From the NCBI GenBank assembly GCA_000431235.1, contig HF988734.1:72647-136646 (forward strand): 64,000 bases of DNA, written 5' to 3'. The notes under the pieces are model-generated. The model worked only from the letters and a program-made list of their open reading frames with translations. It did no database searches and was not told the origin of the DNA. The position numbers and the translations under genes were made by a program. Source of the stretch: Coprobacillus sp. CAG:698 (GTDB lineage: Bacteria; Bacillota_I; Bacilli_A; ML615J-28; CAG-698). How positions within the stretch are numbered: position 1 is the first letter of the stretch; each line of letters begins with the position of its first letter. Below, one piece after another: positions 5,237 to 11,100 of this stretch.

Positions 5237-5265
5237 TTTGCATTTTTATAATAAAGGTGTATAAT
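5237..5265 (+). promoter_or_regulatory. Sigma-A-like promoter (TTTGCA-N17-TATAAT) driving the T-box leader
   Basis: tttgca tttttataataaaggtg tataat. Confidence 0.4.
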
Positions 5266-5271
5266 AATACT

Positions 5272-5525
5272 ATCTGAAAATGTTGATAATGAATATGATT
5301 ACTAGATGGTAATATATAGAGATGTACTGATGGTGGAAATGTACAAATTATATTTAGTAGTTACTCTCATTGGAATGGCTTTAATAGAGCCCGCTTGGAG
5401 CGTTATAACTATGAAGATGCATTCATAAAGTTTTATGAATGAATAAAGGTGGTACCGCGGTAATTTCGTCCTTTTGTTAGTTAGAATCAATTTGATACTA
5501 ATTTACAAAGGACTTTTATTTTGCT
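5272..5525 (+). ncRNA. T-box leader (tRNA-sensing riboswitch) with terminator/antiterminator, upstream of NUDIX-thrS
   Basis: Conserved T-box sequence AAUAAAGGUGGUACCGCGG at about 5444-5462. AGAGA (stem I) motif at about 5317. Terminator stem GTCCTTT...AAAGGAC followed by TTTTATTTT at about 5468-5521. Confidence 0.6.
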
Positions 5526-5548
5526 CCCCTAATAAAGGAAGGTAAAAC

Positions 5549-6040
5549 ATGGAGATAATAAAAATAATTGGTGAGAACTATTTAGGTTCTTGGCATAAAC
5601 AGAGAACAAGCTGTCGAACCTTAGTTATTAAGGATGGGAAAGTATTACTAACATTTGAAAAGAATATTTGTCAGTATATGATTCCCGGAGGAGGAAAAGA
5701 ATCTGATGAAAGCGATACTGAGTGCGCCGAAAGAGAAGTTTCTGAAGAAACAGGATACATTGTAAAAACATCAGAATGTGTGCTTGAGATTGATGAATAT
5801 TATGAGGATAGTAAATATTTTAATAAATATTATCTAGGCACAGTAGTTGGGCAAACGTCTACACATCTAACTCAAAGAGAAAAAGAAAATGGAGCTGAAC
5901 CTGTCTGGGTAGATATTGATACAGCAATAAACATTTTTTCGGAGTACGAAAAATATGAAGATTCTAATGAAATGAAGCGTGGCTTATATTTAAGAGAATA
6001 TACAGCCCTTTGTAAAATATTAAAAAATAATAAAATATAA
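5549..6040 (+). CDS. NUDIX hydrolase
   Basis: Nudix box GG(x5)E(x7)REVSEETG is present. RBS AAAGGAAGG. Confidence 0.75.
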   Translation: MEIIKIIGENYLGSWHKQRTSCRTLVIKDGKVLLTFEKNICQYMIPGGGKESDESDTECAEREVSEETGYIVKTSECVLEIDEYYEDSKYFNKYYLGTVVGQTSTHLTQREKENGAEPVWVDIDTAINIFSEYEKYEDSNEMKRGLYLREYTALCKILKNNKI

Positions 6041-6065
6041 ATAAATTATAGGAAGGTACATTATT

Positions 6066-7979
6066 ATGAAAATTAAATTTTTAGACGGAAGCGTAAAAGA
6101 ATTTGAAAATGGAATGAGTGCAGGGAAAATAGCAATGGCTATTTCCCCAAGTTTAGCTAAAAAAAGTGTGGTTGCTAAAGTTAATGGAGTATTAGTTGAT
6201 TTAGATAAACCAATCAATGAAGATAGCGAATTAGAATTAGTTTTAAAAGAAAGTAGTGAAGCATATGCTGTTTTAAATCATTCATGTAGTCATTTACTTG
6301 CTTCAGCAATTCACAAATTATATCCAAAAGCAATGTTTGGAGTAGGACCTAATATTGAAGAAGGTTTCTATTATGATATAAACCCAGGCGAAGGAATTAC
6401 AATTACAGAAGCAGATTTTTCAAAAATTGAAAAAGAAATGCAAAGATTAGTAGCAGCAGATTTAAAATTTGAACGTAAAGAAGTATCAAAAGAAGAAGCT
6501 CTAAAAATGTTTGCAAACGATAAATATAAAACAGAACTAATTAATGAATTACCAGAAGGCGAAATAATCTCGGTTTATACTGATGGTGATTATAGTGATT
6601 TCTGCAGAGGTCCTCATGTTCCATCAACAAAATATTTGAAAAACTTCAAATTACTTGCTGTAAGTGGTGCATATTGGCGTGGCGATAGCAAAAATGAACA
6701 ATTACAAAGAATTTATGGTACATGTTTCTTTACACCAGAAGAATTAACTAAACATCTAGAAATTCTAAAAGAACGTGAAGCACGTGATCATCGTAAACTA
6801 GGAAAAGAATTAGAATTGTTTATGCTTTCTGAATATGGTCCTGGTTTCCCATTCTGGTTACCAAAAGGAATGATTCTTCGCCGTACTCTAGAAAACTATT
6901 GGGTAAAAATCCATTTACGTGAAGGATATCAATTAATTCAAACACCTATTATGTTAAACAAAGAATTATGGGAAATATCTGGTCACTGGGCAAATTATCG
7001 TGAAAATATGTATACTTCAACAATCGATGGTCATGAATTTGCAATCAAACCAATGAATTGTCCTGGTGGTATGCTAGTTTATAAGAACAGTTTACATTCA
7101 TATAAAAACTTCCCACTAAAAGTTGGTGAGTTAGGTCTAGTACACCGTCATGAGGCCAGTGGAGCTTTAAATGGTTTATTTAGAGTTCGTAACTTTACTC
7201 AAGATGATGCTCACATCTTTATGTGCGAAAGTCAAATCGTAACAGAAGTTGGAAAACTAATCAAACTATTTGATGAAATTTATTCAACATTTGGTTTAGA
7301 GTATAGTATTGTTCTCTCAACAAGACCTGAAAACAAGTACATAGGTAAAATTGAAACATGGAATATTGCTGAAAAAGCTCTTGCTGATGCTTGTACTTCT
7401 GTAGGCAGAGAGTTCAAAATAAATCCTGGAGATGGCGCATTCTATGGACCTAAACTAGACTTTAAATTAAGAGATTCAATGAATCGTGTATGGCAATGTG
7501 GAACAATCCAATTAGATATGCAATTACCTGAAAGATTCGATTTAACATATATCGATGAAAAAGGTGAAAAAGCTCGTCCAGTAATGCTTCATCGTGCTAT
7601 ATTTGGTTCACTAGAAAGATTTATTGGTATTATTACTGAACACTTTGGTGGAGCTTTCCCAACATGGCTTGCTCCTGTTCAAGTTAAATTAATTCCAGTT
7701 AATAACCAATATCATTTAGACTATGTTAATAAACTAAAAGATTTATTCTTTGCAGAAGATATTAGAGTTGAAGTTGATGATCGTGAAGAAAAATTAGGAT
7801 ATAAAATTCGTGAAGCTCAAACAAAGAAAATACCTTATCAATTAGTAATTGGCGACAAAGAAGTAAGTGAAGAAAGAATCACTTATCGTCGATATGGTCA
7901 AGATGCCCAAGTAAATGTATCAGTTGATGAATTCTTACAAATGATAAAAGAAGAAATTAGAACAATGAAAAGGTTATAA
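6066..7979 (+). CDS. thrS: Threonyl-tRNA synthetase
   Basis: Full-length ThrRS (637 aa): TGS domain, editing domain, class II core motifs and anticodon-binding domain. RBS AGGAAGG. Confidence 0.95.
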   Translation: MKIKFLDGSVKEFENGMSAGKIAMAISPSLAKKSVVAKVNGVLVDLDKPINEDSELELVLKESSEAYAVLNHSCSHLLASAIHKLYPKAMFGVGPNIEEGFYYDINPGEGITITEADFSKIEKEMQRLVAADLKFERKEVSKEEALKMFANDKYKTELINELPEGEIISVYTDGDYSDFCRGPHVPSTKYLKNFKLLAVSGAYWRGDSKNEQLQRIYGTCFFTPEELTKHLEILKEREARDHRKLGKELELFMLSEYGPGFPFWLPKGMILRRTLENYWVKIHLREGYQLIQTPIMLNKELWEISGHWANYRENMYTSTIDGHEFAIKPMNCPGGMLVYKNSLHSYKNFPLKVGELGLVHRHEASGALNGLFRVRNFTQDDAHIFMCESQIVTEVGKLIKLFDEIYSTFGLEYSIVLSTRPENKYIGKIETWNIAEKALADACTSVGREFKINPGDGAFYGPKLDFKLRDSMNRVWQCGTIQLDMQLPERFDLTYIDEKGEKARPVMLHRAIFGSLERFIGIITEHFGGAFPTWLAPVQVKLIPVNNQYHLDYVNKLKDLFFAEDIRVEVDDREEKLGYKIREAQTKKIPYQLVIGDKEVSEERITYRRYGQDAQVNVSVDEFLQMIKEEIRTMKRL

Positions 7980-7991
7980 GAGGGGTTATAA

Positions 7992-8828
7992 ATGGATTTA
8001 GTAAAAAGATATCGCTATTTATTCTTTCTAATAGGAGCATTAATTTTACTTGTAATTGGTTCATTATTTGGTATGTTTCCTGTATGTCTAATAGCATATA
8101 AAAAATTTGGCTATAGTTTGCAATTTACGCAAAAAATACTGGTCTTATTTTCAAACTATTATAGTACAGAAATATTTGAAAATGGTCAAACATACGCTCA
8201 GTTTGCAAGTGAGTATTTTACCCTCAATCCAGACTATTTTAATGCTGCTAAACATTTATCTGCTTTACTTCAGTTATTCTCGTATGCTCCGCTTGTTATC
8301 TTTATAGGTGTTTTCTTGTGGAAAGATCTATTAGAAGATGCCAAAAAAATGAAAAGTGAGTTTGGAAGAAACATGCTGATTGTTTTAATAGGTTTCATCT
8401 CGATGCTTGCTCTTTCATATATGGTAAATATAATTTATGCAATTCTTGGAGATAGTGGAACAAGTGTTAATGAAAGTACACTTCAATTGATGATGCAATC
8501 AACGGGTAAATGGTATTTATTAATAGCAGTTGTTATATTTGCTCCAATATGTGAAGAAATAGTATTTAGAAAACTAATAATAGATACATTTGAAAAATCA
8601 TTCAAACTAAATTCTACTATTGCTATTTGTGTTTCCGCATTTATTTTCGCTTTTATTCACGTTACTGATTGCCAAAGTTTCGTATATATCTTTCAGTATC
8701 TAGCCCTCGCCTTTCCTCTTTGTTTAGTTTATCATTTTTCAAAAAACAACATATATGTGTCAATAAGTGTTCATATGTTAAATAATTTATTAGTGGGCAT
8801 TATGTATCTAGTACAATATGGAATCTAA
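7992..8828 (+). CDS. CPBP family intramembrane glutamic endopeptidase (CAAX protease/Abi family)
   Basis: Multi-TM protein with the CPBP motifs EEIVFR, FxxxH (FAFIHV) and a distal H (HMLNN). Confidence 0.7.
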   Translation: MDLVKRYRYLFFLIGALILLVIGSLFGMFPVCLIAYKKFGYSLQFTQKILVLFSNYYSTEIFENGQTYAQFASEYFTLNPDYFNAAKHLSALLQLFSYAPLVIFIGVFLWKDLLEDAKKMKSEFGRNMLIVLIGFISMLALSYMVNIIYAILGDSGTSVNESTLQLMMQSTGKWYLLIAVVIFAPICEEIVFRKLIIDTFEKSFKLNSTIAICVSAFIFAFIHVTDCQSFVYIFQYLALAFPLCLVYHFSKNNIYVSISVHMLNNLLVGIMYLVQYGI

Positions 8829-9738
8829 CGAATATAATAAGTTAATAAAAAAAGCACAAGAGTACGCTGAAAAAGAAGATTACTTAGAAGCAATTGCTAT
8901 ATATAAAATGGCATTTAAATATGAAATACATTCAAATGATTATGCTGATTTAATATATTATTATTTAAGAGCTGATAAGTTAGAAGAAGCTTTAGTGACT
9001 ATAAAGGACTATCTTAAGTTAACTCATGGTGAATATTTAGGATATTACTATTATGGTGAATACTATGCTAAACAAAATGATTATAAAAATGCAATAAAGA
9101 AGTATAAAATAGCTTTACGCAAAGGCTTATGGGAAGTAAACTATAGAATAGGATTTTGTTATCAAGAACTTAGTGAAAATAACCAAAAGTATTTAAACAA
9201 AGCTCTTAAGTATTATAAGAATGTTATAAAAAGAAGTGGCTATGACTATGATACTTATTTCAATATATCTTTAGTTTATGAGCGAAAGAAAAAAATAAAA
9301 AAGGCTTTATCATATGCTTTAACAGCATATTCAAATAATAAAGAATATCCAGATATTGCTTTTAATATTGGAAATCTATATGCAAGACTTAAAGAATATG
9401 AAAATATGGAAAAGTATTACTTATTAGAAATTGCTAATGCTAATCCTAACTATAGAGCCTTTTATAACTTAGCTCTTTATTACAAAGAAATAAAAGAATA
9501 TGAGAAAGCTCAAGAATATTACATCAAAGGATTAGGCTACTGTAAAGATGATTATCGTATATGGTATAATCTTGGATGTTTATATTCAATTATGGAAAAA
9601 TATAAAAAAGCATCTGATTGTTTTTATAGTTCATATTTATTGAATGATAAAACTATTGACTATATAATAGCAGATGATGAAACACAAGAGTTTATTAAAT
9701 CTTCAGAGTTTGAAGACTTGAAACATAAAACAAAATAA
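8818..9738 (+). CDS. Tetratricopeptide (TPR) repeat protein
   Basis: Repeated A/Y-rich ~34-aa TPR-like units (YYxxGxYYxKQxxYxxAIKxY...). Overlaps the upstream gene by 11 nt. Confidence 0.55.
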   Translation: MESNEYNKLIKKAQEYAEKEDYLEAIAIYKMAFKYEIHSNDYADLIYYYLRADKLEEALVTIKDYLKLTHGEYLGYYYYGEYYAKQNDYKNAIKKYKIALRKGLWEVNYRIGFCYQELSENNQKYLNKALKYYKNVIKRSGYDYDTYFNISLVYERKKKIKKALSYALTAYSNNKEYPDIAFNIGNLYARLKEYENMEKYYLLEIANANPNYRAFYNLALYYKEIKEYEKAQEYYIKGLGYCKDDYRIWYNLGCLYSIMEKYKKASDCFYSSYLLNDKTIDYIIADDETQEFIKSSEFEDLKHKTK

Positions 9739-9762
9739 AGGCGTTATCAGCGCCTTTTTAGT
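9736..9762. terminator. Bidirectional intrinsic terminator between convergent genes
   Basis: AAGGCG-ttatcag-CGCCTT followed by TTTT. Confidence 0.5.
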
Positions 9763-9801: not shown

Positions 9802-11100
9802 TTATTTTTCAATACAAAAAATAGCATATAGAGGAATGGATTTAATTCCATTTTCAAAGCCAAAGTTCTTTAAAGATAATCTTAAAGAATATTTTGGTAA
9901 GTATTTGTTTATATAGACTGATAAACTCCTTGAACGTGTATTATCAGATGCTTTTACTTCAATAGGAATTATATCATCTTTTATTCTGGAAATGAAATCA
10001 ACTTCTGCTTGATTTCCACTTGTCCAGTAATATAAACTTAACCCATTACTTGTTAGCTGATTATAAACATAGTTTTCTGTTAACCCACCCTTAAAGTTTG
10101 ATAGTAAAATATTATCTCTTTGAATATCATCAAAGTGAATATCTTGACTTGCAGAGCACAATCCAACATCATTCATGTAGAATTTGAAATCTGTTAGGGA
10201 TCTATAAGCATTAAGAGGTAAGTTTATTTGCTCAACACGATATAATCTGCTCGCAATACCAGACAAACATAACCATTCAATAGCTCCTTCGAATTCAGAT
10301 GCCCTTCCTCCAGATTTCACATATTTATATTGAAACTTTTTATTTTCTTTTGCAAGTTGCGTACTGATATTTTTATAAACAATTTTTGTTTTAGGAATCT
10401 CTGATTGTTTATTATATTTACTCATATCATTTTGATAAGCTTCTAAAACAGACATTTGAGCAATTCTTACCATCTCAACATTTTTATTTTTAATGTAATT
10501 TTCAACGACTTCAGGCATTCCACCGACATACAAATATTCTTTGTAGTATTCAATTGCTCGTTCATGGAATAGATTATCTAGAGGTAAGTCTTTGTTAAAT
10601 GATTCTTTAATTTGTTCCATTAAATAATTTTCATTGCAAGCAAGTAAGTATTCTTCAAAGTCCATTGGATACATATTTAAAAACTGTACTTTTCCGACTG
10701 GAAAAGAAAAATTGCTGCGGTTTACGCTAACACCTAGTAAAGAACCAAGGGCAATTATGTGATATTCATTTGCTTCTTCATTGAAATACTTTAAGGATGT
10801 AATGGCTTTAGGACACGCTTGAATTTCATCAAATATAATTAAGGTATTTTTGGGTAGAATCTCTTTACGTTTATAGTTTTCTAGTTTATGAATAATGTTT
10901 GTTGGATTTAAATTATTAAAAAAGTCTTCTAAATCTTTTTCTTTTTCAAAATTACAATAAACATAATTAACATATTCTCTTCCAGCAAATAAGTTAACAA
11001 TATAAGTTTTACCTACTTGTCTAGCTCCTTGTAATATTAATGGTTTTCTGAAGTCACTATTTTTCCATTCAAGTAACTTTTGATAAATTTTACGTTCCAT
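9802..11100 (-). CDS. AAA family ATPase (AAA_14 + DUF4143 type)
   Basis: Walker A GARQVGKTY and Walker B IIFDEIQ. The C-terminal region is typical of DUF4143 ATPases. Confidence 0.7.
   Translation of the reverse strand: MERKIYQKLLEWKNSDFRKPLILQGARQVGKTYIVNLFAGREYVNYVYCNFEKEKDLEDFFNNLNPTNIIHKLENYKRKEILPKNTLIIFDEIQACPKAITSLKYFNEEANEYHIIALGSLLGVSVNRSNFSFPVGKVQFLNMYPMDFEEYLLACNENYLMEQIKESFNKDLPLDNLFHERAIEYYKEYLYVGGMPEVVENYIKNKNVEMVRIAQMSVLEAYQNDMSKYNKQSEIPKTKIVYKNISTQLAKENKKFQYKYVKSGGRASEFEGAIEWLCLSGIASRLYRVEQINLPLNAYRSLTDFKFYMNDVGLCSASQDIHFDDIQRDNILLSNFKGGLTENYVYNQLTSNGLSLYYWTSGNQAEVDFISRIKDDIIPIEVKASDNTRSRSLSVYINKYLPKYSLRLSLKNFGFENGIKSIPLYAIFCIEK

Follow-up and report, generated by a model that had tools for sequence, protein, structure and literature searches.

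A NUDIX hydrolase gene between a threonine T-box leader and thrS: a probable recent passenger insertion

The T-box leaders of thrS and thrZ in Bacillus subtilis (Rfam family RF00230) combine a long Stem I, a K-turn, a specifier loop, distal double T-loop motifs and a Stem III with a UGGNACC bulge, a competing terminator and antiterminator, a threonine specifier and thrS downstream, and all of these features recur at the locus described here, which lies in a 64-kb stretch of DNA analysed as a whole (the window). The surrounding dnaB-dnaI...thrS neighbourhood presumably matches that of B. subtilis as well. The specifier of B. subtilis thrS is ACC, whereas the window has ACU, with a C 3' of the codon, a reduced Stem II that is accompanied by a score below the Rfam cut-off, and a gene for a NUDIX hydrolase of 163 amino acids before thrS.

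T-box operons in which the synthetase gene does not come first have been described before. The genes cysS and asnS frequently take second place in an operon under T-box control, and in streptococci small uncharacterised ORFs follow T-boxes for Thr, Val, Ala and Gly, for example spr1471 (Thr, Table 2 of that survey), which the authors propose to be tRNA-ligase related (Wels et al., 2008; PMC2494555). The present locus follows the same principle of another ORF before the synthetase; here, however, it is a NUDIX hydrolase gene, a type that does not occur in the survey of Wels et al. (2008; PMC2494555), and the insertion is datable to a single species. A further parallel is provided by a contig from a human gut metagenome (L172), with the order Thr T-box, aldo/keto reductase, 4HBT thioesterase and thrS. 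In both cases unrelated enzyme genes, tightly packed, have been inserted independently between a Thr T-box (95.5 bits and GAA-G-ACU-A in L172) and thrS, while L172 differs in its cargo, in having two genes rather than one, in the canonical purine after the codon and in its lineage (ThrRS 52% identical, 41% GC). Since another cargo occupies the same position there, such insertions recur with arbitrary cargo.

Table 1. Features of the locus, with positions counted along the window.
Feature	Position	Strand	Evidence and remarks
Promoter-like site TTTGCA-17-TATAAT	5237-5265	+	10/12 consensus positions; ends 9 nt upstream of the T-box match
T-box leader	5274-5476	+	RF00230 covariance-model match; Stem I with K-turn, specifier loop, AG bulge and distal loop; reduced Stem II; IIA/B region; Stem III; antiterminator
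Specifier codon ACU (Thr)	5363-5365	+	Invariant UUACUCUCA in five leaders, all ahead of thrS
T-box bulge UGGUACC (7 nt)	5450-5456	+	Direct reading, Rfam alignment; invariant among five leaders
Intrinsic terminator	5468-5522	+	Bulged hairpin 5468-5513 (GUCCUUUUGU...ACAAAGGAC) and U-tract UUUUAUUUU 5514-5522; minimum-free-energy fold
Direct repeat, left copy TAAAGGAAGGTA	5533-5544	+	Repeat family D1, 514-nt spacing; holds the NUDIX ribosome-binding site
NUDIX hydrolase gene, 163 aa	5549-6040	+	PF00293, 41.7 bits against a cut-off of 21.1; species-specific insert
Spacer NUDIX-thrS, 25 nt	6041-6065	+	AT-rich, AGGAAGG, no hairpin, no terminator
Direct repeat, right copy TATAGGAAGGTA	6047-6058	+	Is the thrS ribosome-binding site, inside the spacer
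thrS, threonine--tRNA ligase, 637 aa	6066-7979	+	TIGR00418, 718.7 bits against a cut-off of 383.65; TGS, tRNA_SAD, class II core and anticodon-binding domains
Rce1-like CAAX protease-family membrane protein gene	7992-8828	+	PF02517, 64.3 bits; 12 nt 3' of thrS
TPR-repeat protein gene	8818-9738	+	Several TPR families match; 11-nt overlap with the Rce1-like gene
First intrinsic terminator after the leader	9737-9757		AAAGGCGTTATCAGCGCCTTT and T-run; bidirectional, scan positive on both strands; faces a convergent gene

The leader RNA

The leader is a genuine T-box RNA. The covariance-model search proposed with the original prediction gave a match to RF00230 at 82.1 bits over model positions 1-219, which is the whole model, with an E-value of 4.5e-18 in a local search and 3.1e-16 when all 64 kb of the window are searched. 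This falls short of the Rfam gathering score of 93 bits, a database convention rather than a biological feature, and for that reason the leader is absent from a default Rfam scan and was recovered by a permissive search. The low score is due to the reduced Stem II together with a non-canonical S-turn in the specifier loop. Orthologous leaders of the sister lineages score 89.4, 90.2, 97.1 and 100.1 bits and those of the 68% relatives 74-85 bits; for annotation it is relevant that the gathering score can be missed by T-boxes in this clade of low-GC gut Bacilli.

The T-box motif AATAAAGGTGGTACCGCGG can be read from the sequence at 5442-5460, and the T-box sequence AAAGGUGGUACCGCG is placed at 5445-5459 by both the sequence and the Rfam alignment. 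By the rule for pairing between the bulge and the tRNA 3' end given in the T-box literature (PMC7583486), UGGU of the bulge (5450-5453) would pair with the tRNA end ACCA, with A as the discriminator. In the Rfam alignment a K-turn (GA motif) is present as UGA...GGA on both sides of the basal Stem I helix, the distal loop GGUGGAAA is found, and the AGAGA bulge and GAUGGUGGAAA line up with AGAGA and GgUUGGUGaaA of the model, being (nearly) invariant across the five leaders. Between strains the leader shows 1 change in 331 nt and is better kept than the synonymous sites of the neighbouring genes.

Promoter-like matches in this AT-rich region occur at chance frequency (17 observed, 16.7 expected), so the case for a promoter rests on position and conservation; all five aligned leaders share TATA in the -10 and TT in the -35 element, which makes the site at 5237-5265 a plausible candidate. 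At the other end, a T-box sequence and a terminator hairpin with U-tract do lie directly upstream of the NUDIX gene, as originally predicted. The terminator was missed by a simple scan because its stem is long and bulged, and was revealed by folding. The 5' arm of the terminator and the 3' arm of the antiterminator overlap, GUCCUU being common to the terminator and to antiterminator helix A1, and the two structures are mutually exclusive in the folds of the window and of the four sister leaders alike. All four sister leaders have an equivalent hairpin and U-run, with a varying stem sequence (UUUGU/ACAAA as against UUUAU/AUAAA). This layout is that of the standard transcription-attenuation class of T-box.

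In the proposed mechanism, transcription would start from a promoter near 5237-5265 and, while charged tRNA(Thr) is in the majority, the hairpin and U-tract would end the transcript. Uncharged tRNA(Thr) would pair with ACU through its anticodon and with UGGU through its ACCA end, which would stabilise the antiterminator and let RNA polymerase read through. The leader is thereby predicted to respond to tRNA(Thr).

The inserted NUDIX gene

In the four nearest sister lineages (L087-L090, with ThrRS 91, 82, 81 and 79% identical) the T-box lies directly before thrS, with no NUDIX gene, and one sister species without the insert shares 85% DNA identity with the window in thrS. The distance from the T-box core to the thrS start is 31-259 nt in 60 of 61 other thrS loci as against 620 nt here, so no gene fits between leader and thrS in those 60, and the arrangement is indeed atypical, as had been supposed. 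The comparison with related genomes that had been suggested earlier gives the same picture: the NUDIX-thrS order is missing in L087-L090, and none of 80 reference-genome loci has a member of the NUDIX family immediately ahead of thrS or immediately after a T-box. The contigs with the two closest homologues likewise have the gene in neither place; it adjoins there a GNAT gene, or gapA and a methyltransferase gene. The neighbourhoods of the family are variable, with GNATs dominant, and hold no conserved neighbour, the largest cluster of shared neighbours comprising 6 of the 80 loci. The T-box-NUDIX-thrS order is thus rare and recent, and these comparisons place the insertion in one species alone.

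Several candidate parallels among the NUDIX homologues were discarded. Fuzzy T-box-motif matches upstream of five of them (L011, L020, L042, L051 and L080) turned out with Rfam to be two tRNA genes and otherwise nothing. The T-box near another (L043) is real and belongs to valS, from which a GC-rich hairpin parts the NUDIX gene; it was judged to be at chance level, roughly one aminoacyl-tRNA synthetase neighbour being expected by chance in 80 NUDIX loci. A supposed NUDIX-thrS operon (L066) was rejected, as thrS lies 2.6 kb off on the opposite strand.

Homology to the sister leader L087 ends after the terminator U-tract, just upstream of the left repeat, and restarts at the final bases ahead of the thrS ATG. 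These boundaries were read jointly from the leader alignment, the pairwise alignment and the repeat search, the global pairwise alignment being distorted by the gap. In the ancestral state the leader stood directly ahead of thrS and the Rce1-like and TPR genes; in the window's species only, an insertion of 514 nt has since separated the U-tract of the terminator from the ribosome-binding site of thrS. The segment comprises a complete NUDIX gene with its own ribosome-binding site, flanked by a 12-nt repeat containing a ribosome-binding site. Its position implies that a fall in tRNA(Thr) charging would induce NUDIX together with thrS and probably also with the two genes that follow. An inverted repeat between the 3' arm of the terminator and the NUDIX 3' end (I1) was rejected as a long-range structure, since the stretch encodes the family-conserved YTALC. 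A foreign composition of the insert was rejected too, its GC (31.7%) and GC3 (21%) being like those of the flanking genes; as the closest homologues also lie on contigs of 27-28% GC, relocation within the clade and transfer among low-GC relatives are inseparable.

The Nudix box of the product is intact (G48-x5-E54-x7-R62-E63-V64-x-E66-E67-x-G69-Y70, pattern GX5EX7REUXEEXGU), with no substitution at G48, E54, R62, E63, E66, E67 or G69 among 32 homologues. The AlphaFold2 model (pLDDT 95.5, pTM 0.88) has the Nudix alpha/beta/alpha fold, and the top 50 Foldseek matches against the PDB are all Nudix proteins (best E 1e-8). Between strains, 6 synonymous and 3 non-synonymous changes give a pN/pS of ~0.12, which indicates purifying selection on the coding sequence. 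The intact box, the confident model and the pN/pS together indicate a complete and still-functional gene. Its retention in all sampled strains under purifying selection suits a neutral passenger and equally suits a selected benefit of the new regulation.

Substrate assignment gave a uniformly negative picture. Among the substrate-defined Nudix subfamilies of NCBIfam none reaches its cut-off: YtkD/RppH (TIGR02705) scores 27.3 against 154.4, MutT (TIGR00586) 17.2 against 97.9, RppH (NF001938) 16.4 against 116 and ADP-ribose pyrophosphatase (TIGR00052) 16.6 against 79.55. Neither a subfamily score above cut-off nor a close structural match places the protein among the Ap4A hydrolases, a sequence search of the PDB returned matches at E 1e-5 or weaker, and the structural neighbours found with Foldseek have TM values of just 0.5-0.6 and are spread over many substrate classes. 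PHROGs and PADLOC returned generic Nudix only, with no substrate signal. Generic Nudix hydrolases such as the Enterococcus faecalis MutT/nudix family protein (PDB 2azw) and BdRppH (3ees) share the fold, the Nudix box and a length of ~150-165 aa, at 20-23% identity and TM 0.55-0.6, whereas the N-terminal GxNYxGxW...R..CR and C-terminal EMxRGxYLRE motifs of the family are matched by no characterised subfamily. No substrate class can be inferred from sequence, structure or neighbourhood.

A standard tRNA(Thr) T-box with an ACU specifier, followed by a recent NUDIX insertion that is most likely a passenger, is therefore considered the probable reading. The threonine-responsive expression of the gene would most likely be owed to its landing site, with no sign of an aminoacylation or alarmone role, and a functional link between NUDIX and ThrRS is probably lacking. 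The suggestion that the enzyme connects to translational stress or alarmones accordingly finds no support, the gene being absent in the sisters, the family having no such association, the product giving no substrate signal and L172 carrying a different cargo. The alternative that survives best, though it is still unlikely, is adaptive recruitment, in which the NUDIX activity would be useful at low tRNA(Thr) charging, for instance in the hydrolysis of Ap4A-type dinucleotides that ThrRS produces, or of a different stress nucleotide. Fixation of the insert in all sampled strains with a coding sequence under purifying selection would fit this, as would the good ribosome-binding site of the gene, its tight 25-nt junction with thrS and the presence of Ap4A hydrolase and RNA pyrophosphohydrolases among the Foldseek neighbours, the last at the level of the generic fold only. 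Against it stand the four sister lineages without the gene at this site, a family with no thrS or T-box association in 80 genomes save the chance-level valS neighbour, its variable and GNAT-dominated neighbourhoods, the subfamily scores far below cut-off (YtkD/RppH 27 against 154, MutT 17 against 98) and the different cargo of L172 in the same position. The fuller version, that the gene was recruited and not just trapped and that starvation-dependent expression serves to remove a stress nucleotide or a nucleotide that ThrRS forms as a by-product, is decidedly improbable; if true, it would be a natural case of a housekeeping Nudix enzyme wired to an aminoacylation-sensing riboswitch. The co-regulation itself would be significant only if the enzyme acts on a ThrRS-related nucleotide, and the practical value is limited. 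As a probable passenger insertion, the locus offers a clean, datable case of a riboswitch-controlled operon gaining a gene, and such insertions can make new regulatory connections by accident.

Extent of the transcription unit

The NUDIX gene is followed by thrS after 25 bp with no terminator, as had been described, and both genes are identified by their family models (PF00293 and TIGR00418). The spacer is 100% conserved across strain variants, and with no terminator and no room for a promoter in it, NUDIX and thrS would share one upstream terminator that senses tRNA(Thr). Co-regulation of the two by tRNA-Thr, as claimed in the original prediction, thus holds as far as the shared leader and terminator go, and co-transcription behind that one leader is a likely consequence of the layout.

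The unit probably extends further than the earlier reading, which overlooked this, had placed it. The Rce1-like gene stands behind thrS in L087-L090 as well, with gaps of 3-12 nt and no terminator between, and is a probable ancestral passenger of the T-box-thrS unit; the TPR gene behind it is likewise conserved in these lineages. The T-box unit would then run through both genes to the terminator at 9737-9757, and with two unrelated genes in it, unrelated passengers would already be normal in this operon.

A separate promoter or terminator between NUDIX and thrS would have uncoupled the genes; the spacer contains neither, while promoter-like hexamers do occur inside NUDIX (5655-5682, 5784-5812 and 5990-6018) at chance frequency, and thrS could also have T-box-independent expression. 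Were a promoter in the 3' part of NUDIX to drive thrS, the T-box would mainly control NUDIX and thrS would be largely constitutive. Matches on the + strand (TTGAAA-16-TATGAT at 5655-5682, TTAAGA-17-TAAAAT at 5990-6018) speak for such decoupling, but matches like these are expected by chance in DNA of 28% GC, the count given above being 17 for an expected 16.7. Furthermore, the leader is conserved above the synonymous sites of its neighbours, which argues for continued use, and T-box control of thrS is ancestral and nearly universal in the sampled relatives, so that decoupling seems quite unlikely.

Specifier codon and integrity of the locus

The original prediction expected ACC or ACU as the specifier, and ACU is obtained once 15 other thrS leaders are used to set the register. 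It occupies the codon slot in the Rfam alignments of L088 and L090, and the same slot holds ACC or ACU in 11 of 11 further thrS T-boxes and AUC in the Ile T-box (ileS leader) of the same clade. On this comparative basis the specifier is read as ACU and the leader as Thr-specific. When the window sequence is aligned alone, CUC (Leu) falls into the three codon columns, and a leader that is not Thr-specific would follow from this raw covariance-model alignment. However, the CUC register is produced by a single additional A-U pair in the helix under the loop (AAUGA/UCAUU, shared by the window and L087, as against GUGA/UCAU for L088-L090), and with ACU or ACC in the slot of the orthologous and the 11 other leaders and thrS downstream in every case, a leucine specifier is highly improbable. 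Reading CUC followed by U would require disregarding the extra base pair, reading the second CUC (followed by A) would break the helix between K-turn and loop, and the registers UAC, UUA and UCU were rejected on comparative grounds. For annotation, an extra base pair confined to one lineage can evidently displace the register of the covariance model, so that the wrong specifier is assigned. No tRNA(Thr) gene, and no tRNA gene giving an anticodon or discriminator, lies in the 64-kb window.

A purine directly 3' of the specifier is described as conserved (PMC7583486), and the base is A or G in the 11 other thrS leaders, but it is C5366 in the window and C in all four sister leaders. This is treated as a clade-specific deviation from a conserved, non-defining feature. 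A cytosine in place of the purine might weaken tRNA binding, and its clade-wide occurrence may interest T-box structural biologists.

That the NUDIX gene was merely misjoined to the thrS locus in a chimeric assembly is scarcely credible: although the window derives from a metagenome assembly, the identical arrangement is found on 14 contigs, taken from NCBI, ENA and Logan assemblies that were made independently from different samples with different assemblers and that include strains whose flanking genes have diverged by 1-3%, and the insert is present in all sampled strains.

Layout and reading of the threonine T-box unit

The gene between the threonine T-box leader and thrS, encoding a 163-aa Nudix hydrolase (NUDIX), is a live gene that was very recently inserted into the 5' untranslated region. 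The original prediction, which placed a T-box leader with terminator hairpin and U-tract ahead of NUDIX and put thrS 25 nt behind it with no terminator between, was confirmed in every particular by the results for the motif, RF00230 (the Rfam T-box model), the terminator fold, PF00293 and TIGR00418. Its T-box motif, AATAAAGGTGGTACCGCGG, is located at 5442-5460. In a permissive search, the leader gave a full-length match to RF00230 of 82.1 bits (E 4.5e-18 locally, 3.1e-16 for the whole window), which falls under the curated cut-off of 93 bits while lying far beyond chance. The Rfam default scan of the window left the T-box unreported and listed as its sole element a TPP riboswitch (RF00059, 40309-40407 on the + strand, 60.8 bits, over the gathering score); apart from this riboswitch and the T-box, the window has no Rfam element. 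The K-turn, the AGAGA bulge, the GGUGGAAA distal loop, Stem III and the UGGUACC bulge are all visible in the RF00230 alignment, with Stem II shrunk to a short hairpin. The terminator hairpin appears in the minimum-free-energy fold; its 5' arm, GUCCUUU, doubles as the antiterminator's 3' arm. Both proteins score well over their cut-offs (NUDIX, 41.7 bits against 21.1; thrS, 718.7 bits against 383.65).

Features of the leader and the genes behind it, in window positions
Feature	Position	Strand	Basis or remark
Promoter-like TTTGCA-17-TATAAT	5237-5265	+	promoter-motif match
T-box leader	5274-5476	+	RF00230
Terminator hairpin	5468-5513	+	minimum-free-energy fold
UUUUAUUUU (U-tract)	5514-5522	+	directly after terminator hairpin
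NUDIX ORF, 163 codons	5549-6040	+	PF00293; own ribosome-binding site ahead
NUDIX-thrS spacer, 25 nt	between 6040 and 6066	+	AT-rich, with AGGAAGG
thrS	6066-7979	+	TIGR00418
Rce1-like membrane protease gene	from 7992	+	12 nt after thrS
TPR gene		+	overlaps Rce1-like gene by 11 nt
First + strand terminator past leader	9737-9757	+	faces convergent gene

Since the first terminator past the leader comes at 9737-9757, four genes probably make up the T-box unit. The thrS-Rce1-TPR block is conserved in L087, L088, L089 and L090, the thrS loci of the four nearest sister lineages; unrelated genes therefore already ride on the T-box clade-wide, and NUDIX is the newest passenger added to the unit. In sister lineages an Ile T-box (GAA-G-AUC-A; L088 7789-8014, L089 7761-7983) lies with ileS about 2 kb past the thrS cluster. 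The window has in this place, after the TPR gene, a convergent 432-aa gene (9802-11100, - strand), indicating that synteny breaks here.

A conventional tRNA(Thr)-responsive transcription-attenuation switch is the most likely mechanism, and is proposed with considerable confidence. Uncharged tRNA(Thr) would pair with the ACU specifier and with UGGU of the bulge, stabilising the antiterminator against the terminator hairpin, and RNA polymerase would then continue through NUDIX and thrS, and probably through the Rce1-like and TPR genes as well. From UGGU in the bulge, discriminator A is expected in the tRNA(Thr); the window contains no tRNA genes. Induction of NUDIX under threonine limitation would be a by-product of its position, and adaptive recruitment of the gene to the unit is rather improbable. 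Less probable again is an internal promoter uncoupling thrS; promoter-like hexamers occur inside NUDIX at chance frequency.

Register of the specifier codon

The original prediction had listed a specifier other than threonine among the findings that would refute it; comparison of leaders fixes the register on ACU (threonine) at 5363-5365, since a five-leader alignment and three external anchors agree. When the window leader is aligned alone to RF00230, the codon columns hold C-U-C (Leu). The K-turn/specifier-loop helix (5291-5295 / 5367-5371) carries one extra A-U pair in the window and L087, reading AAUGA/UCAUU against GUGA/UCAU in L088-L090, a compensated two-sided indel, and it is this extra pair that makes the fixed-length Rfam model slide register and put CUC in the codon slot. 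In the alignment with the thrS leaders of L087, L088, L089 and L090 (ThrRS 91, 82, 81 and 79% identical, respectively), UUACUCUCA is unchanged across all five leaders, and for L088 and L090 the Rfam alignment puts A-C-U in the codon columns. The external anchors are the Ile T-box of the window's clade (GAA-G-AUC-A), the leader before thrS in the human gut metagenome contig L172 (GAA-G-ACU-A) and ten more thrS T-boxes with ACC or ACU in the codon columns, among them the 68%-identity relatives, which share the unusual GUU/GAUU motif before the codon. A specifier for an amino acid other than threonine is very improbable.

The base after the codon (5366) is C in all five leaders of the window's clade and A or G in 11 of 11 comparison thrS leaders; a conserved purine, stacking under the codon-anticodon helix, is normal 3' of the specifier (PMC7583486). 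This cytosine is a new detail, as is the register shift that can mislead automated calling of the specifier.

Distribution and origin of the NUDIX insertion

The window (GC 28%) is identical to a contig in metagenome assembly GCA_900521995.1, and the closest ThrRS proteins carry the labels 'Bacilli bacterium' or Acholeplasmataceae MAGs. In NCBI, ENA and Logan assemblies, 14 contigs encode the identical NUDIX protein, each with the gene order dnaB-like, dnaI-like, leader, NUDIX, thrS. Strain variants differing by 1-3% in the flanking genes keep the same arrangement, which is therefore not a chimera, and misassembly is effectively excluded. Between the window and the strain variant L095, NUDIX shows 6 synonymous (pS 0.062) and 3 non-synonymous changes (pN 0.0076), and the leader 1 change in 331 nt; by this comparison both appear constrained.

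The sister lineages share the order dnaB-dnaI-(~315 nt with the T-box)-thrS-Rce1-like-TPR, except that L087 differs upstream, and NUDIX is absent from the thrS locus in all four. L087, the closest sister species, has a different upstream gene, yet the T-box is directly followed by thrS. The gene in question, where others have dnaI, is a 209-aa lipoprotein-like ORF (L087 256-885) with a signal peptide and Cys, no Pfam match and no homologue in the window. The neighbourhood around the thrS leader is variable.

The rating of the NUDIX-thrS order as atypical was borne out in two samples. The first covered 84 thrS loci, the four sisters and 80 loci from metagenomes whose ThrRS is 52-68% identical; a recognisable T-box core lay within 1.6 kb of thrS in 61, and in all but one of these its distance to the start codon was 31-259 nt (median 93), the distance in the window being 620 nt. 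The second comprised 80 reference genomes with NUDIX family members 48-57% identical to the window protein, ranging over Lachnospiraceae, Oscillospiraceae, Erysipelotrichaceae, Acholeplasmatales and even Treponema, and in none of them did the family immediately precede thrS or immediately follow a T-box. The only aaRS-adjacent case in these 80 loci, probably due to chance (a rough estimate gives ~1 aaRS neighbour per 80 loci), is the Clostridiales MAG locus L043 (1048-4501), in which a strong T-box (123 bits) and valS are followed by a GC-rich hairpin lacking a clear U-tract, with the NUDIX homologue 55 nt downstream. In one further locus thrS lies 2.6 kb off on the opposite strand. The two closest homologues (59-61% identical, on 27-28% GC contigs) have as neighbours a GNAT acetyltransferase gene, or gapA together with a methyltransferase gene. 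Across the 80 loci no neighbour of the family is conserved, the largest neighbour cluster being GNATs (6/80).

Homology between the window and L087 extends through the terminator U-tract ACAAAGGACTTTTATT, stops, and restarts a few bases ahead of the thrS ATG. The insert measures 514 nt and is flanked by a 12-nt direct repeat, TA(A/T)AGGAAGGTA, with copies TAAAGGAAGGTA (5533-5544) and TATAGGAAGGTA (6047-6058) that provide the ribosome-binding sites of NUDIX and thrS. The repeat may be the footprint of the insertion event. The right copy is similar to the thrS ribosome-binding site of L087, which may point to a recombination within the ribosome-binding-site region or to its duplication. The insert comes with no transposase, integrase or long inverted repeats. 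Its composition (31.7% GC, GC3 21%) is like that of its neighbours, so the insert probably came from another low-GC relative or from elsewhere in the same genome.

At 1336-2718 the window also holds a single 460-aa ORF joining Fpg DNA glycosylase domains and dephospho-CoA kinase (CoaE), which are two adjacent genes in L088-L090 (272-277 aa and 182-184 aa); it looks like a species-specific gene fusion.

The NUDIX enzyme and precedents for its position

The Nudix box is intact (G48-x5-E54-x7-R62-E63-V-x-E66-E67-x-G69-Y), and the family has conserved motifs of its own, an N-terminal GxNYxGxW..R..CR and a C-terminal EMxRGxYLRE. The AlphaFold2 model is confident (pLDDT 95.5), with structural neighbours reaching a TM of only 0.5-0.6. 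The proposed ppGpp/Ap4A-type substrate found no specific support: all NCBIfam equivalogs are far under their cut-offs, and the structural neighbours are spread over many classes (RNA pyrophosphohydrolase, Ap4A hydrolase, CTP pyrophosphohydrolase, diphosphoinositol-polyphosphate phosphohydrolase and ADP-ribose pyrophosphatase). Searches of PDB, PHROGs and PADLOC returned generic matches only.

The leader RNA belongs to a very well-known family, and there are precedents for T-box units of several genes that include unrelated passengers. In streptococci, Thr, Val, Ala and Gly T-boxes are followed by small unknown ORFs, e.g. spr1471 (Thr), which the authors proposed to be tRNA-ligase related, and cysS and asnS frequently come second in a T-box operon (Wels et al., 2008; PMC2494555). 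The same survey makes no mention of Nudix or MutT (PMC2494555). The NUDIX cargo and the dating of its insertion to a single species are new. In L172 (799-4429) a Thr T-box (95.5 bits) is followed by an aldo/keto reductase gene (283 aa), a 4HBT thioesterase gene (159 aa) and thrS, in close succession with gaps of 21 nt and 1 nt; this marks an independent insertion of unrelated cargo at the same position between Thr T-box and thrS.
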